Assembly (NCBI GenBank): GCA_001804705.1
Contig: MHAY01000060.1
Span: 52,055-116,054 of the forward strand
DNA length: 64,000 nucleotides
DNA from: Ignavibacteria bacterium RIFOXYC2_FULL_35_21
GTDB taxonomy: Bacteria > Bacteroidota > Ignavibacteria > Kapaibacteriales > UBA2268
Direction: 5' to 3'
The number at the start of each line of letters is the position of its first letter. The stretch's first letter is position 1. The notes below the pieces were generated by a model, which did no database searches, was not told the DNA's origin, and saw only the letters and a list, made by a program, of their open reading frames with translations. Positions 12,934 through 28,451 of this stretch are shown here, one piece after another. Both the position numbers and the translations under genes were made by a program.

Positions 12934-12934
12934 T

Positions 12935-13342
12935 TCAATCTCCTAATATTTTTTTTATTTCATTAGTTATATATTTTTTAAATTTTTTAAAATCATTCTC
13001 ATAATCCCAAATCTTATCGAGATTTTTCCATTGAACTTCTTTTCCATTTATTTTTTTGCTGATTATAAGTGTTTGAGTGTCAAATTTATATTGTTCTTGA
13101 TAATGTCCATTCTTCGGTTGAAGAAAATCAAGAGATTTGAGAGTTATTGTACTATCTTTTAACTCTTTTTCAAAATATAATTCAACCGAATTCTTAATGA
13201 AGTCTTCAATTGTAAGGCAAGCATGACACCTTATAGTTGCATGGAAATATAAAATATCTATCTGTACATTTTTGACCTGAGCTTGCATATTAATTAAGCT
13301 CATTATAAATACAATAGCTACAATAATGATTTGTCTTTTCAT
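12935..13342 (-). CDS. Small exported CxxC protein (resembles proteins annotated as ArsF family in ars clusters; from memory, unverified)
   Basis: Signal peptide, then IDILYFHATIRCHACLTIE. About 135 aa. Paralog of 14951..15364. Confidence 0.45.
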   Translation of the reverse strand: MKRQIIIVAIVFIMSLINMQAQVKNVQIDILYFHATIRCHACLTIEDFIKNSVELYFEKELKDSTITLKSLDFLQPKNGHYQEQYKFDTQTLIISKKINGKEVQWKNLDKIWDYENDFKKFKKYITNEIKKILGD

Positions 13343-13587
13343 TAGCTGTTCACTCCTTTACTTAAATAAACCTTCAGTTCCTCAACCGTTGGCACTTTAC
13401 CGGAGAACAAAACCTTGTCATTGACAACTAATGCTGGAGTTCTCATAACACCAAATTGTGCAATTGTGTTTATATTTGACATTTTAAAGATGTCTGCCTT
13501 AATATTCAATTCATGCACGGCAGAACGAACTCTTTTTTCGAGAGTCTCACAATTTATGCAACCAGGCCCTAAAACAAGAATGTCCAT
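13342..13587 (-). CDS. Small glutaredoxin-like protein (redox-active disulfide protein 2 type), second copy
   Basis: MDILVLGPGCINC...VMRTPALVVNDKVLF. Start moved to M13 (13587). The stop overlaps the next start by 1 nt. Confidence 0.75.
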   Translation of the reverse strand: MDILVLGPGCINCETLEKRVRSAVHELNIKADIFKMSNINTIAQFGVMRTPALVVNDKVLFSGKVPTVEELKVYLSKGVNS

Positions 13588-13597
13588 TTCTTCACCT

Positions 13598-14890
13598 TTA
13601 AATAAGACCAAAAATAAATCCAACTATTGTTGAAAAAAATACGACTAATGACACATATATTACCGTCTTCTTAGTGCCAATTACACTTTTAATAACAAGC
13701 ATACTTGGTAAAGATAATGCAGGTCCAGCTAATAGCAAAGCAAGTGCAGGCCCCTTTCCCATACCTGAACCCATCAATCCCTGTAAAATCGGAACTTCCG
13801 TTAAAGTAGCAAAATACATAAAAGCGGCAATAATACTTGAAATGAAGTTAGCAAACAACGAATTACCTCCAACTAAATCTGATATCCACACTGAAGGAAT
13901 AATTCCTTCATGCCCGGGTCTGCCGAGCATAAATCCGGCAAAAAGGACACCAATGAACAGAAGCGGCATGATTTGCTTAGCAAATGTCCACGTAGATTCG
14001 AACCATTTCTTCAATTCGTCATTGCCGGTTATAGTGATATATGTTAAACCTAATATTGCTACTCCAAATGGAATACTTGGATTATCAAATATAAATACGG
14101 AAACAGCAACAATTGCCGCAATTGCTACTAATTTAATGATATTGGCTTTATACCACAGCGCCAATACAATACCGAATATTAAAGCTGCAACCGAAGTTAT
14201 TATCCATTTTGAACTATATACCGCAAACCAAAAACCTTCAACCGTATCGGGTTTAGCCCAGTTCGAAAACACCAGAATAATTATCATCAAACCAAAGAAT
14301 ATTATTGTTTGCCATAATGGTCGTGGTGTTTCCGGTTCGGGCAGTTCGGCGGCGGCTTCAATTTTTTTTATTTCTTCCTTCCTAAAAATAAACGCCATAA
14401 TCAAACCGATTACTATAGCAAAAGAAACGGCTCCAACTGTTCTTGCAACTGCAATTTCAATCCCAAGCACTTTCCCCGATAAAATTATAGCTAAAACATT
14501 AATTGCCGGACCAGAGTATAAAAATGCTATTGCCGGTCCCAAACCAGCACCCATCATATATATTCCTGTAAAAATAGGCAATACAGTACAAGAACACACC
14601 GCAAGAATACTTCCGGAAACTGAGCCAACACCATAAGCCATTTTTTTATTAGCTTTAGGTCCCAAATATTTCATCACTGAATTTTGACTTACAAAGACGC
14701 CAATTGCTCCTGCGATGTAAAATGCAGGCAGTAAACATAGAATTACATGTTCTTGGGCATACCATTTCATCAACTCTAAGGCTTCAAATATTGCCCCATC
14801 AAATCTTTGATTACCTATAGGTAAATTATAAAATAATATAAATGCCACTGCTAAATATATAAAAATTTTTATTTCTTTTTTCCATTCCAT
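13598..14890 (-). CDS. Multi-pass permease of the ArsP / UPF0718 (COG0701-like) type
   Basis: 430 aa with about 10 TM helices and a conserved CxC motif in a TM helix (SILAVCSCTVLPIF). It is followed by a small redox-active disulfide protein, the classic pairing. Confidence 0.65.
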   Translation of the reverse strand: MEWKKEIKIFIYLAVAFILFYNLPIGNQRFDGAIFEALELMKWYAQEHVILCLLPAFYIAGAIGVFVSQNSVMKYLGPKANKKMAYGVGSVSGSILAVCSCTVLPIFTGIYMMGAGLGPAIAFLYSGPAINVLAIILSGKVLGIEIAVARTVGAVSFAIVIGLIMAFIFRKEEIKKIEAAAELPEPETPRPLWQTIIFFGLMIIILVFSNWAKPDTVEGFWFAVYSSKWIITSVAALIFGIVLALWYKANIIKLVAIAAIVAVSVFIFDNPSIPFGVAILGLTYITITGNDELKKWFESTWTFAKQIMPLLFIGVLFAGFMLGRPGHEGIIPSVWISDLVGGNSLFANFISSIIAAFMYFATLTEVPILQGLMGSGMGKGPALALLLAGPALSLPSMLVIKSVIGTKKTVIYVSLVVFFSTIVGFIFGLI

Positions 14891-14950
14891 TTAATAATCT
14901 CCAAAGGTATTTTTGCTTACTTTATTTTCAAATAGGGTTCTGTTTATTAC

Positions 14951-15364
14951 TTACTTAATTGCTTCAGCAATACTTTTCTTCATTTCCTCTTCAAATTTCA
15001 TTTTATTACTTGTTCTTGCATAGTCTTTAACAATTGCAGAAACATCCACCGATGATTCATCCTGTCCAATTTTTGTAACAATAATGACAGTTTGCGATTT
15101 TGCATTGTATTTTGAAACTAAATCTATATTAGCAGAATCTGCTAACCGGATAACTTTAAATTCAATATTCTCGTTAGCAAAGTATTTAATCAAGACAGAA
15201 TCAACGTCTGCCTGAAGGGCATTACAGGCTCTTGCTTTACAGCAAGCAAGATTTGCTTTGAAATATAAAACTTCAATATATTTTTTGTTTTCTTGTGCTA
15301 AAGAAGTTTCAAATACTGAAATAACAGCCAAGAAAAGCAATAAAACTAATTTCTGCAAATTCAA
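14951..15364 (-). CDS. Small exported Cys-motif protein (ArsF-family-like), second copy
   Basis: Signal peptide, then YIEVLYFKANLACCKARACNAL. Same length and pattern as 12935..13342. Confidence 0.45.
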   Translation of the reverse strand: MNLQKLVLLLFLAVISVFETSLAQENKKYIEVLYFKANLACCKARACNALQADVDSVLIKYFANENIEFKVIRLADSANIDLVSKYNAKSQTVIIVTKIGQDESSVDVSAIVKDYARTSNKMKFEEEMKKSIAEAIK

Positions 15365-16093
15365 TTAATTTTCTCCTAATCTATCACAAAATGCTTTATA
15401 TACATTCTTTGCTCTTGACCTTTCAATTGCTTGTGTTTTCAAGTAATCCAGATTATTAATAACCATATCTAGTTTTGAGTATGGAAAACCCAATACTGCT
15501 TCTCCTGTCTTTACATCTGTTGCATCCCTGCATCCATAGCAACCGAAACTCATATTAATCATACCGCTCAAATATGGAATTACACATGCATCAACGCATA
15601 CAGCCTGTAAAATACTGGTGCTAAATTCAAGCCTTCCGCCATCCTCATTCAAATAAGCAAGAGCAAGCCACATCAACTTTTCTACTTCATCCTCAACTAT
15701 TATCACATCAGGAGTTTTATCGAAATTTTTCAATGGCTTCACAAGAACTGAATTAAATTTATTCTGCTCAATCCTTGGCATTGTTTCCATTACTTTCTGT
15801 CCAACTTCAAGTTCACGAAATATTCCATATCCTTGTAATATACTGCCGTTTTTTAACTGCTCTGTGAGTGGTTTAAGACCTAAAGCTGCTGCTGCCGCCG
15901 GACAAGCAATGTTATCTTTATTGATCGTTATTGATTTGCCATGTCGTGCTTCCATTACTGCCTGGCAAAACCGGCAGTCAATCTTATTAGACTGTTCAGA
16001 TTGATAATTTTCTTTGTAAAATTTTACACCTACCGGCAAGCCCGTTAATCCAATAGTGTTCATAACTTCTTCTGATATTTCTTTTAAGTTCAT
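15365..16093 (-). CDS. DUF169-family protein
   Basis: PVGVKFYKE, CRFCQAV, ACPAAAAALGL and FGCYGCRDATD match my memory of the DUF169 (COG2043) pattern. Function unknown. Confidence 0.6.
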   Translation of the reverse strand: MNLKEISEEVMNTIGLTGLPVGVKFYKENYQSEQSNKIDCRFCQAVMEARHGKSITINKDNIACPAAAAALGLKPLTEQLKNGSILQGYGIFRELEVGQKVMETMPRIEQNKFNSVLVKPLKNFDKTPDVIIVEDEVEKLMWLALAYLNEDGGRLEFSTSILQAVCVDACVIPYLSGMINMSFGCYGCRDATDVKTGEAVLGFPYSKLDMVINNLDYLKTQAIERSRAKNVYKAFCDRLGEN

Positions 16094-16094
16094 A

Positions 16095-16463
16095 TTAATT
16101 CCTTTTTTTATCTTCTTTGTCGCTACATATTATGTCATATCTATCAACACTTTTAACTTTCGCCAAATCTTCCTTTATCTCCTTCTCATTAGAGAACCAT
16201 CCAGGTAAAGAATCAATTATATTTTTTACGATTGTGTTTTCAATATCTTGTGAAATCCTGTAATTTATCCATTTTCCTTCTTTCTCATCTTCAATAAATC
16301 CTTCTTTTCTAAGATATGATAAATGGTTTGAAACAGTTGCAGTGGTTAAACCCAAAATCGAAGTAATTTCACAGACGCATAGCGGCTTCTGCAAAAGCAT
16401 CATCAATATCCGTACTCTATTTGGCTCGGACATCACTTTAAATAATTCTATTTTATCTCTCAT
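16095..16463 (-). CDS. arsR: ArsR/SmtB family metalloregulator (As(III)-type CVC site), second copy
   Basis: RILMMLLQKPLCVCEITSILGLTTATVSNHLSYLRKEGFI contains a winged HTH with the CVC motif. Confidence 0.85.
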   Translation of the reverse strand: MRDKIELFKVMSEPNRVRILMMLLQKPLCVCEITSILGLTTATVSNHLSYLRKEGFIEDEKEGKWINYRISQDIENTIVKNIIDSLPGWFSNEKEIKEDLAKVKSVDRYDIICSDKEDKKRN

Positions 16464-16480
16464 CTGTTTTTCTCATTTAT

Positions 16481-16504
16481 TCATTTAGCTAATCATCTAA
16501 ACGA
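16481..16504. promoter_or_regulatory. Candidate ArsR operator (imperfect inverted repeat) upstream of the second arsR
   Basis: TCATTTAG-N8-CTAAACGA (7 of 8 positions complementary), 18-41 nt upstream of the arsR start at 16463. Confidence 0.3.
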
Positions 16505-16691
16505 TAATTATGAAAATATATTTTGAATACCAAATGATTTCTAAAAAATATTTGCTTCTAAACAAGGAAATTTGAGGTTGTGTCAAGATAAAAATAAATA
16601 AACACCCAAAGTGGTAAAATGAAAATCGGAAAATATTTTTTATAATACCTGATTCTATGTTTGAAAACACCTATTGACTCATCTCGCATAT

Positions 16692-17234
16692 TCATTTTAA
16701 TTTTTTTTCTAGAACATTTTGAATCTCTTCTTCTATTCCAGTTATATATCCCATCCTTTGCCAGGTAATTTCTCCTTTCTCATTGAAAAGAATATAATGA
16801 GGTTTATCATTAACATTCATAGCTCTTTTGAAATCGCTGTTCTCATCAAGATAAATATCAAACAGCCAACCTTTTCCCTTTGCCAAGGGAGCAACTTTTT
16901 TGCTGCTTCTCGAATCGTCAATACTTATTGCGATCACTTTAAGACTAAATTTATCCTGCAATTCGCTATAATTATCAGCTAATCCATCCAGGGCTTTCAA
17001 GCTTGGACTACAGCAGGATCCAAAAAAGACAATAAGTAATGGATTCTGATCACTTGCCAGATATTTGGTGTCAATACTTTCTCCTTTCAGGTTCTTTATT
17101 TTTACAGAAGGGATTGAATTAATTTGTGAAAAAACCTTATTAAAAAGAATTAACAACACTACAATTATTGAAAATGATATAGTACGAATTTTCTTTGACA
17201 ATTTTAACTTCATATTTTTCTTTATAGTATTCAA
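16692..17234 (-). CDS. TlpA/redoxin-like exported thioredoxin-fold protein with a non-canonical CCSPS site
   Basis: Signal/anchor helix. PLLIVFFGSCCSPSLKAL aligns with the WCGPC region of TlpA-type proteins, with Trp replaced by Cys and the resolving Cys replaced by Ser. Confidence 0.6.
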   Translation of the reverse strand: MNTIKKNMKLKLSKKIRTISFSIIVVLLILFNKVFSQINSIPSVKIKNLKGESIDTKYLASDQNPLLIVFFGSCCSPSLKALDGLADNYSELQDKFSLKVIAISIDDSRSSKKVAPLAKGKGWLFDIYLDENSDFKRAMNVNDKPHYILFNEKGEITWQRMGYITGIEEEIQNVLEKKLK

Positions 17235-17242
17235 TAAATATT

Positions 17243-17386
17243 TTATACAATACTACCTTTATCTATATGAATCCTTACATTACCATAATTAGAAGCAACA
17301 GGACTATGCGTTACCATAGCAATAGTTATTTGATTCTCGATATTAATCTGTTTCAAAACTTCTAATATTTCAATTGCTGATTTCAT
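17243..17386 (-). pseudogene. Remnant of an ABC ATPase 3' end (47 codons), a paralogous copy of the end of gene 21581..22249
   Basis: My translation is MKSAIEILEVLKQINIENQITIAMVTHSPVASNYGNVRIHIDKGSIV*. The intact gene ends ...SIEILEVLKRINIENQITIAMVTHSPTASKYGNIRIHIDKGSIVN*. By hand alignment, nt 17247-17374 match 21588-21715 at about 113/128 with no gaps. There is no Walker A/B part. Confidence 0.8.
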
Positions 17387-17413
17387 AATTTTTATTAAAT
17401 CCGATATAAAAGC

Positions 17414-18682
17414 CTAAAAATAAAATCTTGCCCAAATATCTAATTTTCCTTCGTATTGTTTGCTGCCATATTCGGTATTATCACTACCAACTAAAAAAGT
17501 GGGCCATAGTATAAATTCAAAGTTTGTGACTGGTTTATAACTTAAAGGCATGCCAATTATAAAGCTATTATCATTTAAATTATAAATTGTATATAAAGCA
17601 GGAGTGAAGTCAACCCAGTTAAACGGCTCCGGCAACGATATTTTTAGGTATAAGTAATCCTGCATTAGGTTTGATGAAGTAAAATAATTTTTATTCATAT
17701 TAAGTGCTTCTGATACGGAAATATTATTTCCCGATGAAATTGCATTCAAAAGAAATTTGTTGTATTCCTCATATTCTTTTAGCATTAATCCAGCATCATT
17801 ATGATAATATTCTAAAATAAATGTCATATTTAACTCATTCAACCATCTTATACCGATTAAATAAGAAGAACCACTGATTTTTTCAAGCATTAAGATACTA
17901 TCTGAAACAGTATACTTTGAATGATTATCGAACAAACTGTATTCACAATGAATTTCTAAACTTGGAAAAATGTTTCTTGAGAAATCTAATCCGATTTTCG
18001 ATGAATTTGCTTTGCTGTAATAACTCATTAAATCAATATCAGTATCCCATAATAGAAAATATAATTTTACTGCTAAATCAGTGTATTCAAGTTCGGATAT
18101 TTTATTATTAATCGTTTTTATCGAAGGTATAACAATTAAGTCAATAGCCATATTATTAATAAAGTCGCTTTGAAAGCTTTTGGAATATTGAAGATTAATA
18201 GAAAAAATACCGGACTTTGCGAGTTCAGGATTTTCCGGGTCTTTTACAGAATTGACATAACCGACAGGATTAAAGGCATATCCTTTGCCCCAATTAAGCA
18301 TTTTTTTGCCTATGATAGCATCCATATTTTGGAATAAGCTAATATTTCCATACATTTCAAATAAATTTATATCAAACTGATTGTCATTATAATATTCGGA
18401 ATGGGTTTTAATGTGAAAGCCTAAATCTTTTGTTTGATAGTCGCCATTAAGATATAATTCCATTCTGTATGATGATAAAACATCTGATAAATCCTGATTA
18501 TAAAACATTAAATTATATATAGGAGAACTTTTTCTGGTTTTATTTAATGAATATTTACTATCAAGATTCCCGCTTAATTTTAATGTTTCGACTTCACTTA
18601 ATACAAAGCTGCTATCATAGTCTTGCGCTGATAATATAGTAATCATTAATATGGAATATATAAAAATAAAAAAAGTCTTCAT
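17414..18682 (-). CDS. Predicted outer-membrane beta-barrel protein, family unknown
   Basis: Signal peptide, alternating amphipathic Tyr/Asn/Ser-rich strands, and a C-terminal ...IWARFYF aromatic terminus typical of OM barrels. Confidence 0.5.
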   Translation of the reverse strand: MKTFFIFIYSILMITILSAQDYDSSFVLSEVETLKLSGNLDSKYSLNKTRKSSPIYNLMFYNQDLSDVLSSYRMELYLNGDYQTKDLGFHIKTHSEYYNDNQFDINLFEMYGNISLFQNMDAIIGKKMLNWGKGYAFNPVGYVNSVKDPENPELAKSGIFSINLQYSKSFQSDFINNMAIDLIVIPSIKTINNKISELEYTDLAVKLYFLLWDTDIDLMSYYSKANSSKIGLDFSRNIFPSLEIHCEYSLFDNHSKYTVSDSILMLEKISGSSYLIGIRWLNELNMTFILEYYHNDAGLMLKEYEEYNKFLLNAISSGNNISVSEALNMNKNYFTSSNLMQDYLYLKISLPEPFNWVDFTPALYTIYNLNDNSFIIGMPLSYKPVTNFEFILWPTFLVGSDNTEYGSKQYEGKLDIWARFYF

Positions 18683-19416
18683 TTTCTTAAGCCTTCTAAT
18701 TTTGACATATAATTAATAGTAAAAACTTCATCCTGAAATTTTCTTGGATTAACTTTTATGTATATCATTTTTGAAAAGTATCCCTTATACAGTGGACTTG
18801 TTGTTTCAAGTATTGAAGGCCTTTTCAACCCATTACTAAAATCTTTTACTTCCTTAAATTCAAGCGTTTTTATTAGCATCCCACCCGCAGAATAGCATTC
18901 TATTTTTGTTAATATCTCATCTTTGGTTGCCCACATTTTTAATTTATCATAAGCGACGGTTTGGTTCTTTGCCTTTAAGTCCAGGATATATCCTTTTTCG
19001 TTTTTATCCGCTTTAATAACATTATATTCGGCGTTATAATCAACTTGCATTATATCGGCATTATTGAATACTCCGCCGGTAATTGACTGCAGGCTGGTAA
19101 TACGAATCGGCTTGCCGACATTGGGTATATAAAGCCACATATTATCTCCGACTCTTAAAGTTGTTCTGCCTTTTTCACTTGCAGGTGAAAGGAAAAGCAT
19201 AGCCACTTTATCCTTATCCTTTTTTACTGTATAAACATTAAATTCTTTTGTCTTTCCATCAGGATAAATATCAATTAATTTTCGATATGCTTCATAACTT
19301 GCAGGCATAAGTTTATCATCTATTCTTTTCAACAACTCATCGCCGCTTTGTGCAAAAAGCAAAAATGTTGTTGAGAAAAGAAATATTAGCAATAAGGTTG
19401 TTTTGTAGATTTTCAT
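18679..19416 (-). CDS. LolA-like outer membrane lipoprotein-sorting-type periplasmic protein
   Basis: Signal peptide, then GDELLKRIDDKL...KVAMLFLSPASEKGRTTLRVGDNMWLYIPNVGKPIRI...GGVFNNADI. This is the pattern of LolA_like proteins that accompany FtsX-type ABC permeases. Confidence 0.65.
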   Translation of the reverse strand: MKIYKTTLLLIFLFSTTFLLFAQSGDELLKRIDDKLMPASYEAYRKLIDIYPDGKTKEFNVYTVKKDKDKVAMLFLSPASEKGRTTLRVGDNMWLYIPNVGKPIRITSLQSITGGVFNNADIMQVDYNAEYNVIKADKNEKGYILDLKAKNQTVAYDKLKMWATKDEILTKIECYSAGGMLIKTLEFKEVKDFSNGLKRPSILETTSPLYKGYFSKMIYIKVNPRKFQDEVFTINYMSKLEGLRK

Positions 19417-19434
19417 AATTATTATCTCAATTTA

Positions 19435-20685
19435 TTAAACATGTCTTAATGCTTCAACCGGTTCCATTTTCGATGCCTTGATTGCCGGCTGTAAGCTTGC
19501 AAATGCCGAAATAATAATAACAATTAGCAATGTAAATAAAATTTCAGCAATTGGTATTTGAGGAGCAAGTGTAAGTTCCATCATGCCAAAAGTAAAGTTC
19601 AATTTAAATGCACTTATTATCAATAATATTAATGCGCCAAAAATATTGCCGGCAATAGCGCTGAAAAAGCCAAGAGTAAGACCTTCGCTCAAGAAAAGTA
19701 AAAGGATTTTCCCCGGCAATGTACCGATTGATGCAATTGTTCCGATTTCTCCAATCCTTTCGTAAACTGACATCATCATAACATTTAAAATGCTGATTAA
19801 AACAATTGATATTAGAACAATCCTAATAGTTATTATTAATAATGATACTATCTTTGATATACTTGCAAAAGGAGATAATTCTTCCCAAGTGTGAATTTCA
19901 AAGTTTTGATTAGTTGAATTTTTTCCATCTATTTTTAAAATATCTTTTTTCAATTTTTTTACTACGCTGTTCAATTTATTAAAATTATTCAGTTTTACAG
20001 CAATTTCAGTAATATCTCTGTTTCCAATTCTTAATATGGATTTTGCATCATCAATATGAATATATCCGTCTTTACCTTGTGGACCAAGAATGTTTTCCGA
20101 GATTCCTGAAATTCTAAAGTTCATACCATTAACCGAACCATCTTTATTAGTCGCGATTATGACAACATCGTCTCCGACTTTTAAATTCATTCCATCTGCA
20201 ATATTAAGTGGAATTACTACCGAACCCGGTTTAACAAAAGTATTTGGTTCGGAATTTCCTTTTTCTATTCTTTTTACAAGTCCTGGACAAGTTTTACTTT
20301 CGTTTTCGGGATTTACTGCAGTTAATTTTAAATTAGTTGTTTGAGTAAAATTACTTATCATAGCACCAAATTTAATCCTTTGGGAATATGCTTTTACTTC
20401 GGGATTGTTAGATAATAATTTCTCTATTCGTTTTAAATCTTTTTCAGGGATAGTAATATCCAAGGGTAAATTATCTATTGAGCTTACATATCCTTTTTTA
20501 TGTATTTGGATGTCTCCAAGATTAGATTCAGTTAGAATTCCGATAATCTCCTTGTTAAAAGAATTACCGATACCGCTGAAAATTATGACTAAAGCTACGC
20601 CCATAGTAATTAAAGAAGATGTTAATAACGTTCTGCGCTTATATCTCATGATATTTCGTATTGCTAATTTTATTATGGTTTTCAT
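19435..20685 (-). CDS. ABC transporter permease, FtsX/MacB/LolC type (module 2)
   Basis: N-terminal TM helix, a periplasmic domain of about 250 aa, three C-terminal TM helices, and a C-terminal ..PAIKASKMEPVEALRH motif. Confidence 0.85.
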   Translation of the reverse strand: MKTIIKLAIRNIMRYKRRTLLTSSLITMGVALVIIFSGIGNSFNKEIIGILTESNLGDIQIHKKGYVSSIDNLPLDITIPEKDLKRIEKLLSNNPEVKAYSQRIKFGAMISNFTQTTNLKLTAVNPENESKTCPGLVKRIEKGNSEPNTFVKPGSVVIPLNIADGMNLKVGDDVVIIATNKDGSVNGMNFRISGISENILGPQGKDGYIHIDDAKSILRIGNRDITEIAVKLNNFNKLNSVVKKLKKDILKIDGKNSTNQNFEIHTWEELSPFASISKIVSLLIITIRIVLISIVLISILNVMMMSVYERIGEIGTIASIGTLPGKILLLFLSEGLTLGFFSAIAGNIFGALILLIISAFKLNFTFGMMELTLAPQIPIAEILFTLLIVIIISAFASLQPAIKASKMEPVEALRHV

Positions 20686-21399
20686 TTAATTGTACTCCCT
20701 AAGTGTTGCATTCGTATTTTCTTGTACTGTGATAATTAGCCCGTCTTCAAGTGTATAAATGATTTCTGCTTCTTTCATAATCTTGGGGTCATGGGTAGCA
20801 AAAATAAAAGTAGTACTGAATTCATCTTTCATATTCCTCATTAACTCTAATACTTTGAAGGCAGTAATATGGTCGAGATTCGCTGTCGGTTCGTCTGCCA
20901 ACACCAGTTTCGGTTCCGTTACAAGCGCTCTTGCAATAGCTACTCTTTGCTTCTGTCCACCGGAAAGCTGGGCGGGGTACTTATCTTTTTGATCCAGCAT
21001 TCCGACTTTTTCAAGCAAGGCATTTATTTTTTGCTTTCGAATTTCTAACGGGACATTTTGCACCATTATCAGAGGATATTCAACGTTTTCATATACTGAA
21101 AGAACAGGAATGAGGTTGAAATTTTGAAAAATAAAACCGATATTTTTTCCCCTAAATTTTGCTAAGGACTTCCTGTCCATATTGTTGATTTCTGTTCCCG
21201 CCACAAACACTTTCCCTTCGGTTGATTTGTCTATACAGCCGATTAGATTAAGTAATGTAGTCTTTCCACTGCCCGAAGGCCCAATAAATGATACAAAGAG
21301 TCTTGTAGTTATTGAGAAATTTATACCATTTAATGCAGGGACGGTAATTTCTCCCATCTTATATAACTTTTTTACATCCTGAAAATTAATTAAGTCCAT
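20686..21399 (-). CDS. ABC transporter ATP-binding protein, MacB/LolD type (module 2)
   Basis: [39 protein letters not shown] and the H-loop ATHD. Confidence 0.9.
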
Positions 21400-21500
21400 A
21401 AATATATCTCCTTGTAATTTATTTAAATATTATTATGGTTATTAGACAATGAAATATTCATAAGGTTTAATTTAATATTTGATTTCATATCTCACTTCTA

Positions 21501-21570
21501 TCACTTGCAAACATCCTGTGTACTTAAAGTTCCGGCTTCCAGATTTTTAAAATATTTCTTTTGGATTCAC
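21501..21570 (-). pseudogene. acr3: Remnant of an acr3 3' end (last 22 codons plus stop)
   Basis: Ungapped colinear match of 21501-21570 to 24302-24371, about 55/70 by hand count, with the stop codon at the same position. It reads IQKKYFKNLEAGTLSTQDVCK*, against [21 protein letters not shown] in the intact acr3. Confidence 0.7.
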
Positions 21571-21580
21571 TTAGCAGTAT

Positions 21581-22249
21581 TTAATTCACAATACTTCCTT
21601 TATCTATATGAATCCTAATATTACCATATTTAGAAGCCGTGGGACTATGCGTTACCATAGCAATAGTTATTTGATTCTCGATATTGATTCTTTTTAAAAC
21701 TTCCAAAATTTCAATAGATAAGGCAGGGTCAAGATTGCCAGTAGGTTCGTCTGCTAAAATCAGATTAGGCTTGTTTACTAAGGCTCTCGCAATTGCTACT
21801 CTTTGCTGTTGACCTGCGGATAGCTCTTTAGGTAAATGATTCATTCTATCTTTTAAACCAACTGTTTCAAGTAAATGAATGGCATAATCACTTTTAGTTC
21901 TTTCTCCGTTTTGATTCAAAGATAAAGGAATAAGTACGTTGTTTAGTACAGACAAATATGGAATCAAACTGAAATTTTGCATAACAAAACCTATATGCTT
22001 GCTTCTGATGCCGGCTAATACATTATCAGAAGCAGAATGGAGTTCATGTTTCTGAAATTTGATTGAACCTGCTGTTGGTCTTAATAATCCGGCAAGTAAC
22101 AGCAATAGAGTCGTTTTGCCTGAGCCGGAAGGTCCGGTGATTGTAACAAAATCACCTTGATTGAATCCTAAGTTAATATCCTTAATCGCTTCTACGATAC
22201 CATCTTTATGTTTGTAAAATTTCGATAATCCTTTTGTTTCTATTAACAT
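21581..22249 (-). CDS. ABC transporter ATP-binding protein, MacB/LolD type (module 1)
   Basis: [40 protein letters not shown] and VTHS. Confidence 0.9.
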   Translation of the reverse strand: MLIETKGLSKFYKHKDGIVEAIKDINLGFNQGDFVTITGPSGSGKTTLLLLLAGLLRPTAGSIKFQKHELHSASDNVLAGIRSKHIGFVMQNFSLIPYLSVLNNVLIPLSLNQNGERTKSDYAIHLLETVGLKDRMNHLPKELSAGQQQRVAIARALVNKPNLILADEPTGNLDPALSIEILEVLKRINIENQITIAMVTHSPTASKYGNIRIHIDKGSIVN

Positions 22250-22250
22250 T

Positions 22251-23468
22251 TTAAGCCTCCTGCATAATTTTATATGGTTCTATTTTACCTGCTAAATATG
22301 CAGGAATTAAAGAACCTAAAAGAGAAATAAGTAATGATATTAAAACTGACCAAAGCAAGAATATTGGTATAGGTTCAATATTCAAACCCGCTAACTGTGG
22401 TCCGAGTATTACACCTGATAAAGTACCGATAATATAACCCAATATACCGCCAATAATTCCGAGTATAGAAGCTTTAAGTAAAAGCATCTCATAAATTCTG
22501 CCCTTTGTGAAGCCAATCATTCTATAAGTTCCCAATTCTTTCTTTCTTTCATTAACATTTGCCCAGATAGAATTTCCTATTGAAATACCTCCGACAAAAA
22601 GAATTATAATTAGGAAAATAATTGAAATTTTATTCATTAATTGATTTGTCTTTATTTGCGTTGAAACAATTTGATTGATGGTAGTTATTTTAGTATCGGG
22701 TAGTATATTCCTTAATTTACCAAGCAATCCATCGCTTATTGCATTACAACAACCCATAATTTCAATGACACTCACCTGGTTTTCAATGCCGGTCAATTTC
22801 TGTACAGCATGTAAATGTGCAAATATCCTATCGTCGTCAATTGTACCTGTTTCGCCCAACACATTGAAAACTTTAAAATCACTACCGAGAATATTGACAT
22901 TTTCACCTTGTCTTAATTTCAAAGTAGTAGCAATATTAGACCCGACAATACATTCATTTTGTTGCAAAGTTTCAATTGGTTTTCTTTGAAGACGAACATC
23001 TTCATAACCGTGTGATTTATTAGCAGCGCTTGTGTCACAGGTTGCTTTCAATGCTTGTCCTGATAAACCTGAAGTTTGCCAAACGGGTTTTGAAATAATT
23101 TCATTAGAAGGCAATATACCAGTCAAAACAACGCTTTGGTTGTTGATTTTAATCCTACGAGTCAGTTTTGGAGATATATTATCTACTCCCTGTAATGTTG
23201 AAGTTCTAATCTTTTCGACATAATCTTCAGGAAAAGTTGGAGCATCTATATCTGCCGAGTAATAGTTATCAATGCTGGTTCCCTGAGGCAACACTAAAAT
23301 ATTAGCACCAAGATTATCGAGGTTGACAGCTACAGCTTTTTCTGAAACAACAGCAACAGAGCGAATACCTACTATCACTCCGATTCCAAGAGTAATTGCT
23401 AATAGTGCCGTTATCAATTGAGATTTTCGATGCCATATCTCTATTAACACTAATTTATAAATTTTCAT
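22251..23468 (-). CDS. ABC transporter permease, FtsX/MacB/LolC type (module 1)
   Basis: Same 1+3 TM topology with a large periplasmic loop. The C-terminal motif is PAYLAGKIEPYKIMQEA. Confidence 0.85.
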   Translation of the reverse strand: MKIYKLVLIEIWHRKSQLITALLAITLGIGVIVGIRSVAVVSEKAVAVNLDNLGANILVLPQGTSIDNYYSADIDAPTFPEDYVEKIRTSTLQGVDNISPKLTRRIKINNQSVVLTGILPSNEIISKPVWQTSGLSGQALKATCDTSAANKSHGYEDVRLQRKPIETLQQNECIVGSNIATTLKLRQGENVNILGSDFKVFNVLGETGTIDDDRIFAHLHAVQKLTGIENQVSVIEIMGCCNAISDGLLGKLRNILPDTKITTINQIVSTQIKTNQLMNKISIIFLIIILFVGGISIGNSIWANVNERKKELGTYRMIGFTKGRIYEMLLLKASILGIIGGILGYIIGTLSGVILGPQLAGLNIEPIPIFLLWSVLISLLISLLGSLIPAYLAGKIEPYKIMQEA

Positions 23469-23500
23469 ATTTGAATGTCCTTGTTAAATATCGTAATAAA

Positions 23501-24241
23501 TTATTTGCAGACTTTACCACTACTGGGAGGACAACAACCGCTACTGACCTTTTTATTTGCTGCTTCAACTAAGCTTTTGGCTTCGGTGATCCCGTTGAAC
23601 ATAGATGAAATCTGACCTTGTGCATTGATAACATATGTTATAGGAAATGAGGCATTTTTATCAAATTTGAATTTATTGATAAATGTTTTTTCATTTTTAT
23701 CATCAATATCCAGATTAATAATTGTGGCTTTATCTTTCAAACTCTTACAGGCTGATTGGCAGGCATCTAATTGCTTTTTACTATTCGAGTCAAATTGTTT
23801 TGAAAAGATAACGAATACAGAATTACCTTCATAAATTGCCTTTAAAACATCTTCTTCTTTAGGCGAAGGAACCATATTAACAAGTTGTTCTGGCGTCAGA
23901 TTTTGGGTGGGAGCACCTCCTGCAACAAACCCGTTGGTTGCAATTACCAATATAAGTGGAGTTGGAGCTCCTGCTAAACGATAAGTTTGTACAAGTTTAT
24001 GATTAGCAATGCTTGTTCTATCTAATTCTAATACAGTAGATTTAGAAATAGACTTTTGAGCTTTTTCTGCCAGATTCATGGCTTCCTTAGTGTTGGGATT
24101 ACCTCTTTCAGTAACTACAAGGAATACGATTTTACCATTCTTGTTTGCATTCTCAATGTCTTGCTTTGTATCAGCCAAGGATACAAATAGGTTCGCAAAA
24201 AATAATGTTGCGATTAGAACGGAAATGCTTAAATTTTTCAT
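23501..24241 (-). CDS. Exported protein with two thioredoxin-like domains lacking CxxC and a C-terminal GCCPPSSGKVCK tail
   Basis: Signal peptide. Two Trx-fold-like halves (GKIVFLVVTE...TPLILVIATNG and NSVFVIFSK...FPITYVINAQG). The final 12 aa carry a vicinal Cys pair plus a third Cys. Confidence 0.5.
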   Translation of the reverse strand: MKNLSISVLIATLFFANLFVSLADTKQDIENANKNGKIVFLVVTERGNPNTKEAMNLAEKAQKSISKSTVLELDRTSIANHKLVQTYRLAGAPTPLILVIATNGFVAGGAPTQNLTPEQLVNMVPSPKEEDVLKAIYEGNSVFVIFSKQFDSNSKKQLDACQSACKSLKDKATIINLDIDDKNEKTFINKFKFDKNASFPITYVINAQGQISSMFNGITEAKSLVEAANKKVSSGCCPPSSGKVCK

Positions 24242-24301
24242 GTGATTCTCCTAAAAATTATTTTTAAATTCTTTTATATTATAATCATTTATTTCATTCA
24301 A

Positions 24302-25384
24302 TTAAATGCGAAAATCCTGAGCAATCATAGTATCGGCTTCCTGATTTTTAAAATATTTCTTTTGGAACCACAATGCAACATTGACTAATGCAATCAGAGC
24401 CGGTACCTCAACTAATGGTCCTATTACTGCCGCAAATGCTTCACCTGAATTTATTCCGAATACTGCAACTGCTACTGCAATAGCTAATTCAAAATTGTTG
24501 CTTGCAGCCGTGAATGATAATGTAGCAGTTTTGGAATAATCTGCTCCAACTTTTTTACCCATATAAAATGAGACAAAAAACATTATAACGAAGTAAAGTA
24601 AAAGTGGTATCGCTATTCTTATTACATCAAAAGGTATTCTGACAATAAATTCCCCTTTTAAAGAAAACATTACGAATATTGTAAATAGCAAAGCTATCAA
24701 TGTAATGGGACTTATTTTAGGAATAAACTTTTTATGATACCATTCTTTGTTTTTGAATTTAATTAAAGTAAATCTGGTAAGGATGCCTGCAATGAAAGGG
24801 ATACCCAGATAAATAAATACACTTTCTGCTATTTGACCTATTGTAATATCTACCTTGAATGATTGCAGTCCGAGCCATTTTGGCAAAACTGTAATAAAAA
24901 CATAAGCATAAACGGAAAAAAACAGTACCTGGAAAATTGAGTTGAAAGCAACCAAACCTGCGGCATATTCTGTATCACCTTTGGCAAGCTCGTTCCATAC
25001 AATTACCATAGCAATACATCTTGCGAGTCCAATCAATATCAAACCAACCATGTAATGCGGATAGTCCTGAAGAAACAGAATTGCAAGAAAGAACATTAGG
25101 ATTGGACCGACAATCCAGTTTTGTACGAGTGATAATCCGAGAATTTTGAAATTCTTAAACACATCGCCCAGTTCTTCATATCTGACTTTGGCAAGCGGGG
25201 GATACATCATTAAAATTAGTCCCACGGCGATTGGAATGTTTGTAGTTCCCGATTGAAATTGGTTCCAGAAACCAACTATACCCGGGAATAAATAACCTGA
25301 CAATACACCTATAGCCATTGCAATGAATATCCACAATGTCAGGTATCTATCGAGAAAGCTAAGTTTTTGTGATATATTTTCCAT
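24302..25384 (-). CDS. acr3: ACR3-family arsenite efflux permease
   Basis: [22 protein letters not shown], and GLARCIAMV (containing the conserved Cys). Start placed at M12 (25384), just after the upstream stop. Confidence 0.9.
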
Positions 25385-25394
25385 TTTAATACTA

Positions 25395-26642
25395 TTATTT
25401 GTTAAACAGTTTTCCACCCATTAAATAAAAATATGCAGTTGCCCAATTTGCCAATAAAGTTGCAACACCGAAAATCAGCATACCAACACTGAACATAGCC
25501 CATGCTGATAAAATATTTCCAATAATACAACCGGTTGCAATTCCTGCACCAACTCCTATTAGAAATCCACCTAATGCCGCAATCAATATTTGACTTGGTT
25601 CCTTTGGTAAAAGTTTCGTTTGACCGGACATTAACCCGGATATAAATGCTCCAATTATAGTTCCTATTGAAAGTAGAATTAGCCATACACTGAGTTTCTT
25701 CGGTTCATATTTTGGAACGGCGACAGAAGGAATTTGAGCTGACTTTGTCTGTATGTATGTTATTGTACTATTAATATTAGTCTGTGCTTTGGGTTGAGGC
25801 TTCTGATAAATGAATCTTACATTATTATCAACAATTGCCTGATAAATATGATTAACACCATGCGTTACACCAAGAGGATAATTCCTGCCAACAGGCAATG
25901 ATGAGAGCCAAGCCAACATAGCAATTACTCCGATTGCAATACCAGTCTGCCAGGGTTTCCAGGATTTTGTAAATATCTTGTTAAATTGAAATTTGTCCTT
26001 TATGGTATTTTTTGTTCTTGTTTTCTTTTTTGAATTAATATAAATCAAAACAATAGTCAGCAGAAAAAACATTAAAACCAGCAGCCAGTACGGTAAACCT
26101 AATAACGAGTGCAGGGTAATTGCATTATCATTTTCACCATTTATAACGAAGCTAAGAAGAAATTTGTTGAATCCCTCCAGGGGGCCAAAATCAGCAAAAG
26201 AAATCCCAATTGGTATTGTTAAAAGTGCGGCAATGGAGTTAATATTTCCTGTTGCTCCTTTATACATACAACCGCTAATGCAGCCACCTCCTAAGACAGT
26301 GCCAACACCAAAAATTAATCCGCCAACTAATGCACTGAGCCAGATTAATTTTTTTGGAGCTAATTGTATGACACCTAAACTCTCAAAAATTGCAAACAGA
26401 ATCATTGATGTAAGAATTGCTATCCAGAATCCAAATAGTTTCTTAGAATCCCGCATAATGATTACTTCGCTCATAGCAGATGAACCGCACAGGTCACCCT
26501 TTTGGAGAGCAAATCCAAATAAGAAGCCAACTCCAATAGATAGGATAACCCATAATTCAGTTGCAACAGCAAGAATAACAACAGCTATAAAAAACAATGC
26601 AGAAATTGTTAATAATAATTTTAGATTATTTAATTGTCTCAT
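25395..26642 (-). CDS. YeeE/YedE-family (sulfur-compound transporter-like) membrane protein, full two-half fusion
   Basis: 415 aa with about 9-10 TM helices. Cys-containing re-entrant motifs are [21 protein letters not shown] and ATGCIIGN. Confidence 0.7.
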
Positions 26643-26673
26643 AAAAATAATCCCTTTATTTTAAGTTTATATT

Positions 26674-27075
26674 TTATTTGCATATTAAACCTCTCGACTG
26701 CAATAAAATATGTATGCTGTCTTCAGAAAAAAATCCCTCATGTCTATAAAACTCAATATTGGCTGAATCAAGAAATACCTGGGTAGGCATTAACCTTATT
26801 TTATATTGTTCCGCTTCTTCTCTGTTTTTTATTACATCAATGAATTTCACAAGTATTTGGCTACCATATTTTTTTTGAATTGAATCCATTACAGGTCTCA
26901 TGTTTTGGCAAGGGATACAACTCACAGAACCAAGTTCAATAAATGTTACTTTCGTAATTGTATCTATTGGATTAATATTGTTATCACTAATATTGTCAGA
27001 GTTATTACAAGATGAAATAAGGAAACACAATATTAAAACCAATAATACTATAAATATTTTGCTCTTATTTTTCAT
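26674..27075 (-). CDS. Thioredoxin-fold lipoprotein (CIPC active site), paralog of 12126..12692
   Basis: Lipobox FLISSC, then VTFIELGSVSCIPCQNM...LMPTQVF. Confidence 0.75.
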   Translation of the reverse strand: MKNKSKIFIVLLVLILCFLISSCNNSDNISDNNINPIDTITKVTFIELGSVSCIPCQNMRPVMDSIQKKYGSQILVKFIDVIKNREEAEQYKIRLMPTQVFLDSANIEFYRHEGFFSEDSIHILLQSRGLICK

Positions 27076-27469
27076 TATAAATAAGGTTATTTAATTCCAC
27101 AGTTTCGATGTAATCAATTATTTCATCCACTTTATCTACTGTTACAGGAGTTTTCCCCTTTACTATTCCAAAATCGGTTGTATTAATGTGTTTAAAGGTT
27201 GTTATTCCTTTATCCTTTAGAATTTCTTCTGCACAATTGATAGGACATCCATCAAGGACTACAAATCTTGAGTACTCTTGTTTGGATTGTTCTGTAAATT
27301 TTTCGTCTATTGCAAATCTTGCAAGGCACAGCATTTTAGATTTACCTCTTTGCATTAGTTTACGGGCAACCAAATCTGAATATGCACCTGTGTTTGATGC
27401 CCCTGAACAAGCGACGATTCCAACTTTTCCATCTTCCATTTTTAATCTTTCTGTATCATTTATTATCAA
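27065..27469 (-). CDS. DGC-domain (putative zinc-binding) protein
   Basis: VACSGASNTGAYSDLVARKL...MLCLA...VVLDGCPINCAEEILKDKGI contains the eponymous D-G-C motif and conserved Cys. The start may be M11 (27439). Confidence 0.7.
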   Translation of the reverse strand: MIINDTERLKMEDGKVGIVACSGASNTGAYSDLVARKLMQRGKSKMLCLARFAIDEKFTEQSKQEYSRFVVLDGCPINCAEEILKDKGITTFKHINTTDFGIVKGKTPVTVDKVDEIIDYIETVELNNLIYNEK

Positions 27470-27512
27470 AAATCATATTCAGACTTATATAAACAAATGT
27501 TATAATCTATAA

Positions 27513-28451
27513 TTATGAATCTAAATTTATTTGCCATGTTAACATAATGCCAAAAGAATATGAGTTAGTCAATTGTTTGCCATTATAATATTTATAAAAA
27601 GGATAATCATAATTACAGGAAATATAAAAATTATCAATTTTATAACTAAGCTGTGGAGAGGCAACAAATACTAAACCACCCGAGTCTTCAATAATACTTC
27701 CGTTATATCTGTCTTTACCTCTATACTCATTTCTCAATTCTAAAATGCCGACAAGGTTATTGAAAATAGATTTTGATATATAGAACGAAGAGAAAATTGA
27801 ATAACCGTATAAATAATCGTGTTTGTTAATGGCATTGATTTCAGCCCTGTTTATCAGGAACAAATGCAAACCTTCGTTCTTAAATCCTTTGTGTAAAAAA
27901 GAGTGGAATAAAATCCCATAAGCACCGGTTGAAGGTAAAATATTCTGTGGTACGTTAGCTTCACTAAAGTTAACAGGCACTCTGGCGCCAATACCTGCCG
28001 TATATTCAAGCTCTTTTACCCTGCTGTTATACAGATTGTATTTAACAGATGTATTGAGATGTGAAAACCCCGAACTTTCTAATTTATAATAATAATAATC
28101 CTGCATTTTTTGGAGGAAATAACCCGACTCTAATTCCAAAGTTAAATCTTCTGTTAAGCCATAGCCGGTATTGAATCCGATATAATTAAATTTATATTCT
28201 TTTACTAATCCCGGTTCGGTTATGATGTCACCTGAATAGTATTTATTGCCATAACCATTCATAAAAAATACTGATGTCCGAAGATTGTTTTCTTTCAGAA
28301 CTCCCAGATTTGCCGAACCACCTAATGGTGTCAGACCACCCACTGCAGCACCTCCCATACATCCACACTGTGAATATAGGCTGTAACCGCATAAAAATAT
28401 AATTGTAATAAAAACACTAATTTTCATCATTATACTCTTCAATAATTTCAA
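27513..28451 (-). CDS. Predicted outer-membrane beta-barrel protein with an N-terminal QCGCMGG motif
   Basis: Signal peptide (..GYSLYS), then CGC directly after the predicted cleavage site. The rest has Tyr/Gly/Asn-rich alternating strands. Family unknown. The start may be M8/M9. Confidence 0.45.
   Translation of the reverse strand: MKLLKSIMMKISVFITIIFLCGYSLYSQCGCMGGAAVGGLTPLGGSANLGVLKENNLRTSVFFMNGYGNKYYSGDIITEPGLVKEYKFNYIGFNTGYGLTEDLTLELESGYFLQKMQDYYYYKLESSGFSHLNTSVKYNLYNSRVKELEYTAGIGARVPVNFSEANVPQNILPSTGAYGILFHSFLHKGFKNEGLHLFLINRAEINAINKHDYLYGYSIFSSFYISKSIFNNLVGILELRNEYRGKDRYNGSIIEDSGGLVFVASPQLSYKIDNFYISCNYDYPFYKYYNGKQLTNSYSFGIMLTWQINLDS

Follow-up and report, generated by a model that had tools for sequence, protein, structure and literature searches.

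A candidate ars-dedicated type VII ABC module and an apparently mobile Lol-like cassette in one gene string of an Ignavibacteria bacterium

The stretch of DNA considered here (the window, 64,000 nucleotides in length) comes from Ignavibacteria bacterium RIFOXYC2_FULL_35_21 (assembly GCA_001804705.1, contig MHAY01000060.1, positions 52,055 to 116,054), and the proteins of the region of interest recur, identical, in metagenome-assembled genomes (MAGs) named Ignavibacteria bacterium GWB2_35_12 and GWA2_35_8. Given these exact protein matches in Ignavibacteria MAGs, the host is taken to be a diderm of the Fibrobacteres-Chlorobi-Bacteroidetes (FCB) group. Within a minus-strand string of arsenic resistance (ars) genes lie two ATP-binding cassette (ABC) modules of type VII, that is, of the MacB/FtsX fold, neither of them accompanied by a membrane-fusion protein. 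With moderate confidence, these are two independent systems, one dedicated to ars operons of anaerobes (module 1) and the other a mobile, Lol-like module (module 2). What is said below about their functions draws on protein anatomy and gene context. A sequence-only reading of the same DNA had described six genes at 17414-23468 on the minus strand, namely two permeases, two ATPases, a LolA-like carrier and an outer-membrane barrel, and all six are present as it described them. It had missed a seventh gene, encoding a 246-amino-acid (246-aa) protein, as well as the cysteine motifs of module 1 and the evolutionary independence of the two modules.

The genes of the two modules

Module 1 (21581-24241, minus strand) consists of the 246-aa gene, a permease (Perm1) and an ATPase (ATP1); coordinates and principal matches of these and the other features are collected in Table 1. 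Kyte-Doolittle hydropathy gives Perm1 one transmembrane (TM) helix, a loop of about 245 residues and three further TM helices, and gives the same arrangement to Perm2, the permease of module 2. Together with the Pfam domains MacB_PCD and FtsX found in each, this bears out the 1+3 TM FtsX topology with a large periplasmic domain that had been assigned to both. Perm1 scores 34 bits against the lolCE model TIGR02212 (cutoff 362), and its sequence matches to solved structures cover the TM region only. It has four cysteines in total, namely C144, C173 and a vicinal pair, C240-C241 (MGCCNAISDG), and all lie in the loop exposed to the periplasm. Each is 100% conserved among 75 distinct sequences of 63-93% identity.

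The 246-aa partner is a secreted protein whose homologues all carry the database name 'hypothetical'. Its thioredoxin fold, read as a tandem one, is indicated by PF13848 (Thioredoxin_6), matched by 12 of 20 family members with a best E of 5e-9. It lacks a CxxC active site and has instead a CxxxC and a cysteine-bearing tail. The tail is always C-terminal, is rich in Gly and Ser, and is of the type GGCCPGGSxxGCxK; among 62 distinct homologues its cysteine columns are conserved at 98%, 76% and 73%, and the internal C161 at 95%. Some relatives have a lipobox in place of the signal peptide. No selenocysteine variants of the module 1 CC motifs were found: the Perm1 columns are 100% cysteine, and the two of 74 partner tail genes that end in TGA have no plausible read-through.

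The ATPases of the two modules are 42% identical, and each has an intact Walker A, signature motif, Walker B and H-loop. LolD (TIGR02211) is the best NCBIfam match of each, at 210 bits for ATP1 and 216.7 bits for ATP2. Because both scores fall below the equivalog cutoff of 307.75, the proteins are to be called LolD-like and not LolD, and the LolD/MacB-like assignment made from the sequence alone is upheld in this form.

Vicinal dithiols and S3 sites bind trivalent arsenicals, examples being those of ArsD (CCxxxxC), ArsR and ArsA. The cysteine anatomy of module 1, as read from its sequences, fits thiol-based handling of such compounds in the periplasm. A tentative accessory is the 312-aa protein encoded further upstream in the string, a candidate outer-membrane barrel whose mature N-terminus reads Q-C-G-C and, in relatives, Q-C-C-S-A-G-N-P. 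It has no Pfam match of its own; five of nine family members match the outer-membrane barrel family PF13557 (best E 2e-6). The family is found in 13 module 1 loci, in several of them directly upstream of the 246-aa gene. This QCC protein may serve module 1 as a partner in the outer membrane, its dithiol facing the periplasm.

Module 2 (17414-21399, minus strand) consists of ATP2, Perm2, the LolA_like carrier and the barrel. Perm2 scores 107.5 bits against the lolCE model, with its cutoff of 362, and finds LolF (E 5e-16) and LolE (E 2e-14) as full-length matches in the PDB. It presumably forms a homodimer, and four of its histidines are conserved (H62, H210, H265 and H415). That a LolA-like protein follows the ABC genes of this module had been proposed, and the PF17131 match confirms it. 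The carrier has a signal peptide without a lipobox and is 59-81% identical across phyla; no match to the LolA family proper was returned by Pfam or NCBIfam, and the closest solved relative is the LolA-superfamily protein NE2245 (PDB 3buu, E 1e-22). Eight internal methionines (M37, 73, 93, 123, 161, 180, 217 and 237) are conserved at 72-100% in the window copy and 68 relatives, and those of the positions that are visible in the 3buu alignment are mostly Leu, Ala or Arg in 3buu. Such a Met-rich carrier would suit either a soft-metal site or a pliable hydrophobic pocket, as pockets lined with Met also allow flexible hydrophobic binding.

The 422-aa protein has a signal peptidase I signal peptide, ends in ...WARFYF, and is without a match in Pfam or NCBIfam. 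Its AlphaFold2 model, built on a 20-sequence alignment, is an all-beta barrel (mean pLDDT 80, pTM 0.76), in agreement with the earlier prediction of a barrel. Foldseek against the PDB places the 18-stranded AlgE first (E 1.6e-11) and then MOMP, chitoporin and OccD/K porins, although the AlgE match has 8-9% identity and a TM-score of only 0.53, and the porins score nearly as well. The protein models as an outer-membrane barrel, putatively of the AlgE/porin-like 18-strand type. Two members of the barrel family have a precomputed match to the Wzi family (PF14052).

Table 1. Features of the two modules and their surroundings; positions refer to the window, except in the last row, where they refer to the related loci named
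Feature	Position	Strand	Matches and remarks
246-aa secreted thioredoxin-fold partner, protein disulfide isomerase (PDI) b-domain-like (module 1)	23501..24241	-	signal peptide; Cys-rich tail SSGCCPPSSGKVCK
Perm1, type VII ABC permease, 405 aa (module 1)	22251..23468	-	MacB_PCD E 1.5e-9 + FtsX E 1.1e-20
ATP1, LolD/MacB-like ATPase, 222 aa (module 1)	21581-22249	-	ABC_tran E 5e-35; starts 1 nt past Perm1 end
ATP2, LolD-like ATPase, 237 aa (module 2)	20686-21399	-	ABC_tran E 6e-34; 181-nt gap before
Perm2, LolC/E/F-like permease, 416 aa (module 2)	19435-20685	-	MacB_PCD E 1.7e-12 + FtsX E 2.6e-12
LolA_like carrier, 245 aa (module 2)	18679-19416	-	PF17131 E 1e-37, 130 bits, cutoff 30
Predicted outer-membrane beta-barrel, 422 aa (module 2)	17414-18682	-	4-nt overlap with LolA_like gene; 179-nt gap after
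312-aa candidate outer-membrane barrel, tentative module 1 accessory	27513..28451	-	signal peptide; alternating beta-strand-like sequence
ACR3 arsenite efflux permease	24302..25417	-	TIGR00832 460 bits, cutoff 283; 60 nt upstream of module 1
PF03773 ArsP-type permease	13598-14890	-	ArsP_1 E 5e-68
ArsE-family thioredoxin-like protein (redox_disulf_2/ArsE)	13342-13623	-	95 bits, cutoff 62
Second ArsF-family protein	12935-13342	-	92.5 bits, cutoff 60
PadR with N-terminal Cys motif (related loci)	L005 6253-6645; L006 6764-7156; L008 895-1239; L035 2776-3165		

Distribution of the modules and the surrounding gene string

A metagenome scan for module 1 gave 417 confirmed stretches, 80 of which were fetched; context look-ups were added, and the counts given here are pooled. 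Perm1 homologues of 63-93% identity occur in MAGs named Ignavibacteria, Kapabacteria, Bacteroidota/Bacteroidales, Deltaproteobacteria and Planctomycetota. A homologue of the 246-aa gene sits directly upstream of Perm1 in all 64 loci with room for it, and ATP1 follows Perm1 in every related locus that is long enough. All four context look-ups show ArsR, a protein of about 250 aa, the permease and the ATPase, continuing in three of the four into ArsC-ArsM-ACR3 or ArsR-ArsP-ACR3. Among the 30 loci with at least 3 kb upstream and at least 3.5 kb downstream, 29 hold ArsC, ArsM, ACR3 or an ArsP-type permease, and the sole exception (L081) has an ArsR-family gene directly upstream. This linkage holds over at least four gene orders, with the module at the start, in the middle or at the end of the operon, and such variety argues for selection over mere inheritance, although the loci are related. 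By co-location across lineages and gene orders, then, module 1 belongs to ars operons, and it is a strong candidate for a new ars determinant and a new variant within the type VII ABC systems.

Rhodanese-like and DGC proteins are found repeatedly as well, in 14-21 module 1 loci, which hints at sulfur chemistry (thioarsenicals, persulfides) in these ars islands. A 132-aa lipoprotein with an SSSCGCT motif, another exported Cys-motif protein, is repeated in seven module 1 loci. In the closest relatives a DUF1573 protein is encoded directly upstream of the 246-aa gene (8113-8802 in L168, 8497-9183 in L169).

Beyond these near relatives, a profile search of 1.84 billion representatives returned 298 permeases at E <= 1e-30. 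Most of the roughly 100 full-length representatives have CC, CxC or CxxC at the site of the Perm1 GCC, with CxxC dominating; the three flavours of the motif seen there (P0308-P0457) are GCC, CxC (for example ECLC) and CxxC (for example ALCNTCPIEE). Given that a motif at this site is common, Perm1 is best seen as a branch with 'CC plus two extra Cys' of a large, uncharacterised di-Cys FtsX group. To this group we also assign the ABC and thioredoxin components of the Ftr1/P19 loci for iron uptake. Perm1 gives a handle on a larger di-Cys FtsX superfamily, including the poorly understood ABC/thioredoxin part of the Ftr1/P19 loci. As for plasmid carriage, PLSDB holds no close relative of Perm1. The sole relative there is an FtsX-like permease of Pelobacter propionicus plasmid pPRO1 (27% identity over the full length, E 5e-46), which stands in the string HMA-DUF2318-FtsX-ABC of a metal-resistance island and has CSGC aligned at the Perm1 GCC site.

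Module 2 was sought in one genome per GTDB species, with 114 confirmed loci, 80 of them fetched. Homologues of its barrel number 1355 at E <= 0.001, with a typical length of about 424 aa and roughly 45-66% identity across phyla. The hosts of the module belong to more than 10 phyla and include Elusimicrobia, Ignavibacteria, Bacteroidota, Chlorobi, Bdellovibrionales, KSB1, Calditrichota, Marinimicrobia, Cloacimonadota, Edwardsbacteria, Desantisbacteria and others. Of the 62 loci that reach 3.5 kb or more upstream, 60 have the four genes on one strand as ATPase, permease, LolA_like and barrel, and the barrel follows the carrier in all loci long enough. Thirteen cassettes (L026, L037, L042, L046, L051, L053, L059, L066, L069, L076, L078, L079 and L080) are 0.15-1 kb longer, and those examined have an extra small gene between permease and carrier, encoding a Nitro_FeMo-Co/NifX-like protein in five and an uncharacterised 133-aa protein in three.

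Outside the four cassette genes the flanks are extremely variable. The commonest neighbours are a TonB-dependent receptor (13 loci, mostly directly upstream), ACR3 (nine loci) and ArsR (eight loci); NifX-like proteins, a SlipAM-like barrel, ABC-2 permeases, Fur, extracytoplasmic function (ECF) sigma factors, PadR and split PF03773 permeases also recur. Ars genes lie within 10 kb of 12 of the 80 loci. In a neighbour-joining tree of concatenated carrier, permease and barrel, ars-linked cassettes make up seven of the nine members of the window clade and three of the five members of its sister clade, with three further ones elsewhere. Several members of the window clade have two half-size PF03773 permease genes directly downstream. 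The linkage can be close: in L007 an ArsP-type gene and the first cassette gene share 10 nt, the cassette of L001 is separated by 168 nt from the end of an upstream ACR3, and L005 and L006 read ArsP-type permease, OsmC-like protein, PadR, cassette. The PadR proteins directly upstream of ars-clade cassettes have the N-terminal cysteine motifs GCDCH, MCDKNKCGH and CKSKCCC, and these regulators may be thiol or metalloid sensors. Module 2 is apparently a portable, self-contained, horizontally mobile Lol-like cassette with a clade-specific arsenic link.

The two modules keep apart from one another. Module 1 is found in none of the 80 loci with module 2, and module 2 in none of the 88 loci with module 1. 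Likewise, in the relatives whose Perm1 is 91% and 81% identical to that of the window, the ars operon ends with module 1 and module 2 does not follow. The gaps on either side of module 2 in the window, 181 and 179 nt, are the widest in its neighbourhood. The gaps and the absence of module 2 from module 1 loci together indicate that module 2 was inserted behind module 1 in this lineage only.

The string that holds both runs unbroken on the minus strand for 25 genes (11415-30581), and its same-strand flanks, a radical-SAM gene and a P-type ATPase, extend it to 27 genes (8405-31359). In the direction of transcription these are radical-SAM, ArsR (CVC), ArsC of the low-molecular-weight protein tyrosine phosphatase type, arsenite methyltransferase, a thioredoxin-like lipoprotein, the 312-aa protein, a DGC-domain protein, a thioredoxin lipoprotein, a YeeE/TsuA-like sulfur transporter, ACR3, the 246-aa protein, Perm1, ATP1, ATP2, Perm2, the LolA_like carrier, the 422-aa protein, a membrane-anchored AhpC/TSA-like protein, a second ArsR (CVC), a DUF169 protein, an ArsF-like protein, the PF03773 ArsP-type permease, the ArsE-family thioredoxin-like protein, a second ArsF-like protein, thioredoxin, DsbD_TM/CcdA and the P-type ATPase. 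The ars context recognised earlier is therefore real: it comprises ACR3, an arsenite methyltransferase (ArsM, 352 bits, cutoff 263), ArsC, the ArsP-type permease, the ArsE/ArsF-like pair and two ArsR/SmtB regulators, both with the As(III)-type CVC motif.

Downstream of module 2, the DUF169, ArsF-like, PF03773 permease, ArsE-family and second ArsF genes (12935-16093, minus strand) form an arsEF-like sub-cluster behind its own ArsR, and its part at 12935-14890 appears to be of the organoarsenical type. The best NCBIfam matches of the PF03773 permease are SaoE and the SO_0444 Cu/Zn efflux family, both under cutoff. The island also encodes a periplasmic redox set, DsbD_TM/CcdA with several signal-peptide or lipoprotein thioredoxins, and further exported or anchored proteins with vicinal cysteines: the 312-aa protein (QCGC), the AhpC-like protein (SCCSP) and the first ArsF-like protein (ACC).

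HlyD/MFP or TolC/OEP domains were found in none of the 27 string genes or ten further large open reading frames (ORFs) of the window, as the sequence-only reading had noted for the locus, and no HlyD adaptor or TolC gene was found in the annotated related loci either. A promoter and terminator scan of 11000-30800 gave 120 against 103 +/- 10 and 7 against 9.4 in shuffled sequences; these counts do not differ, and the scan is therefore uninformative on operon boundaries.

Three side observations concern the string and its surroundings. The YeeE/TsuA-like thiosulfate/sulfur transporter, the thioredoxin lipoprotein and the DGC-domain protein (25395-27469, minus strand) are placed between arsM and acr3. 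The P-type ATPase that closes the string (8405-11278, same strand; 957 aa, Cation_ATPase_N and Cation_ATPase_C) is of type II (Ca/Mg-like) and not of the heavy-metal P1B type that might be expected there. At the edge of the window, positions 1-2000 fall to a G+C content of 0.23, compared with 0.34 for the whole window, and hold a 481-aa ORF (577-2022, plus strand) without a Pfam match.

Possible cargos and routes

MacB and LolCDE act on substrates that are periplasmic or lie in the outer leaflet. Bacterial arsenic resistance, to our knowledge, ends at the cytoplasmic membrane, with ACR3, ArsB, ArsAB, ArsP, ArsJ and ArsK exporting to the periplasm, and we know of no dedicated system for the metalloid once it is there. 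Module 1 would most likely act at this point. Its dithiol or trithiol sites would capture trivalent arsenicals in the periplasm or in the outer leaflet of the inner membrane, the cargo being As(III), or the methylated MAs(III) from ArsM, expelled by ACR3 or the ArsP-type permease. The arsenical would be passed between the flexible CC...C tail of the partner and the cysteine site of Perm1, ATP-driven mechanotransmission of the MacB type would make the transfer directional, and DsbD/CcdA and the periplasmic thioredoxins would keep the thiols reduced. Its destination could be a carrier to which it is handed off, the QCC barrel, which in some islands would serve as the outer-membrane exit, or the process could be a simple stripping of arsenicals from membrane or periplasmic targets. 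The earlier proposal of thiol-bound arsenical handling fits module 1, with its ars linkage and invariant periplasmic cysteines.

For module 2, homology with LolDF-LolA suggests that a homodimeric permease would extract a hydrophobic cargo from the inner membrane and load it on the soluble LolA_like carrier, which would deliver it to the AlgE-like barrel in place of LolB. By this analogy the cargo is probably hydrophobic. The window clade is coupled repeatedly to ArsP-type permeases, ACR3 and ArsR, so that for it alone the best guess at a cargo is membrane-partitioning organoarsenicals; across the whole family other cargos may be served. In its fullest form the proposal is that module 1, with the QCC barrel in some islands, is an ATP-driven periplasmic thiol relay for arsenicals, and that ars-clade module 2 is a second step after the ArsP-type permease which takes organoarsenicals across the outer membrane. 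That full scheme is offered tentatively, as one that may well not hold.

The strongest alternative is that module 2 has nothing to do with arsenic and is a mobile envelope cassette for a lipid, a lipoprotein or a metallophore-like molecule, carried into metal islands by chance or co-mobilisation. This is a serious possibility, if somewhat short of an even one. Several findings speak for it and so weigh against any arsenic role for the module: about 68 of the 80 loci (~85%) have no ars genes within 10 kb, cysteine is conserved in none of the module 2 proteins, and the neighbours are very variable, with the SlipAM-like barrel among the commonest and with clades other than the window's adjoining TonB-dependent receptors, Fur, ECF sigma factors or NifX-like genes. 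Perm2 is Lol-like over its full length, the large gaps around the cassette in the window give it the look of an insert, and in Porphyromonas and Prevotella iron limitation strongly induces LolA_like/MMPL pairs (PMC10434189). On the other side, the ars-linked share is about ten-fold the chance rate of ~1-2% per 20-kb window, a rate that was itself estimated from the usual copy number of ars loci and genome size, not measured in a control. The ars-linked copies are moreover co-directional with ArsP-type or ACR3 genes and sometimes translationally coupled to them, in arrangements that vary and in different phyla; on the cassette tree they gather in particular clades, and the ars clade has the Cys-motif PadR and the split PF03773 permease genes directly downstream. 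The hitch-hiking exporter suggested earlier is an apt description of the module 2 family overall, but less so of the window clade, which stands mostly in ArsP-type/ACR3/ArsR strings. Most members of the family lie outside ars contexts, and no non-arsenic substrate is known for them; module 1, by contrast, is hardly found away from ars genes.

A further alternative is that module 1 serves another thiophilic metal (Hg, Cd, Cu or Sb), or is a periplasmic redox or repair device, comparable to the Ftr1/P19-like sets, that works under metalloid stress. This is unlikely, though several findings speak for it. The nearest annotated homologue of the module's permease stands in a copper/heavy-metal island with CSGC in place of GCC, the CxxC flavour prevails in the wider superfamily, and the fold of the partner is that of thioredoxin. 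Many metals are sensed by ArsR/SmtB proteins, and such regulators and the cysteine motifs would suit Hg, Cd, Sb and Cu as well. In 11 loci (L107, L108, L113, L115, L121, L122, L124, L148, L150, L157 and L165) HgcAB-like pairs stand beside module 1 within ars islands: a 343-aa HgcA-like protein with the cap-helix motif NVWCAAGKG and a C-terminal TM domain is encoded 1.1-3 kb downstream of the Perm1 homologue, and in seven of these loci it is followed by an HgcB-like 99-aa 2x[4Fe-4S] ferredoxin ending in ...SCC. The HgcA motif is absent from the window. The arsenic reading of module 1 has other weak points: the module 1 loci, being 63-93% identical, may in part have inherited their ars linkage without its having been re-selected; there is no obligatory outer-membrane partner, the QCC barrel being confined to 13 loci; C173 is not kept in the 50%-cluster representative P0308; and the AlphaFold2 model of Perm1, from a 16-sequence alignment, is poor (pLDDT 55, pTM 0.33), so that clustering of the cysteines is not readable from it. 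Against the other-metal and redox explanations stand the neighbours, which are specifically ArsC, ArsM and ACR3 in the 29 of 30 loci, the As(III)-type CVC of both ArsR proteins in the window, the CxxxC and tail of a partner that has no CxxC active site, and the absence of DUF2318, Ftr1 and P19 genes from the window string.

Much less probable is the relay first proposed, in which both modules act as one system to move an arsenical across the periplasm to the outer membrane: all seven genes do lie on one strand of an ars string with short gaps, and module 2 would bring the carrier and barrel that module 1 mostly lacks, but none of 168 related loci has the two together, the nearest Perm1 homologues (91% and 81% identity) do without module 2, a 181-nt gap separates the two, and module 2 is complete alone, with its own ATPase and permease and no conserved cysteine to accept a thiol-bound cargo. 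A BceAB-like sensor or signalling role for the permeases was rejected, as they have four TM helices rather than 10 and no adjoining histidine kinase.

No paper describing either module as an ars component was found, but most subscription journals fall outside the literature covered, and this absence is no proof. The term 'ABC transporter' has zero occurrences, as these searches show it, in a 2018 review of ars gene distribution (PMC6205960), and in the arsenic literature searched FtsX appears only as an unrelated up-regulated gene in Xanthomonas. Should module 1 indeed act on arsenicals, as preferred here, it would bring a type VII ABC system into arsenic resistance for the first time, and would be the first evidence that arsenic is detoxified at a periplasmic or envelope stage in arsenic-methylating anaerobes, such as those of rice paddies, aquifers and digesters. 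Module 2 represents a widespread, uncharacterised design in which a Lol-like ABC transporter is joined to a LolA_like carrier and an AlgE-like barrel. It would be a candidate new route by which hydrophobic molecules reach or cross the outer membrane, dispensing with LolB, TolC and adaptor.

Relation to known systems

Like MacAB-TolC, both modules have permeases with MacB_PCD and FtsX domains and the four-helix TM fold, and by analogy may use mechanotransmission to act on substrates at the periplasmic side. Unlike it, both have the ATPase as a separate polypeptide, there is no HlyD adaptor or TolC in the string or the related loci, and the barrel of module 2 resembles AlgE and porins rather than TolC. 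Module 2 comes closer to LolCDE or LolDF with LolA and LolB, with which it shares a LolD-like ATPase, the full-length match of its permease to LolF and LolE, a LolA-superfamily carrier and the lack of a membrane-fusion protein. It departs from them in that its ATPase and permease are far under the Lol equivalog cutoffs, its carrier belongs to PF17131 and not to LolA proper, it has a predicted AlgE-like barrel, probably with about 18 strands, where the Lol systems have the outer-membrane lipoprotein LolB, and it is apparently accessory and mobile rather than housekeeping.

A similar comparison can be made with operons that pair an MMPL/RND transporter with a LolA_like carrier and a hypothetical protein, such as the iron-limitation-induced ones of Porphyromonas (PG1178-1181) and Prevotella (PMC10434189), or the fused MMPL-LolA-like TOL_3187 of Thalassolituus, connected with growth on alkanes (PMC6304351). 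These share with module 2 an inner-membrane transporter, a PF17131-type carrier and a proposed role in periplasmic transport of hydrophobic molecules. Their energiser, however, is a proton-driven MMPL protein and not an ABC transporter.

Module 1 has its counterparts among metal-handling loci. The DUF2318-linked FtsX permeases are homologous to Perm1 over the full length (27%, E 5e-46) and have a di-Cys motif at the same periplasmic site; these and the Ftr1/P19 systems (FetMP, and Campylobacter cj1658-cj1665) likewise have secreted thioredoxin-fold partners. In the Campylobacter cluster, cj1661-65 are presumably the FtsX and thioredoxin genes. Co-regulation of cj1658-65 is listed in PMC6338021. 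Module 1 differs from all of these in its vicinal CC and two extra cysteines on a 40-residue insert, its single permease gene, its Cys-tailed PDI-b-like partner, and neighbours that are ars genes and not iron or copper genes; DUF2318, Ftr1 and P19 genes were found neither in the window string nor in the annotated module 1 loci.

Finally, the SAO locus of anaerobes (Haft and Gwadz, bioRxiv 10.1101/2022.07.06.499078) was described by comparative genomics and encodes ABC transporter subunits with CC or Cys-Sec motifs, alongside an efflux permease of the ArsP family, a thioredoxin-like protein and a further protein with CC at its C-terminus, and its authors read it as a system for heavy-metal or organometallic trafficking in the service of metabolism rather than resistance. 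It differs in having a MetI-type importer with substrate-binding proteins where FtsX/MacB-type modules are found here, and selenocysteine variants of a kind not seen in module 1. These differences notwithstanding, the SAO locus is the nearest published concept to the arrangement described here.

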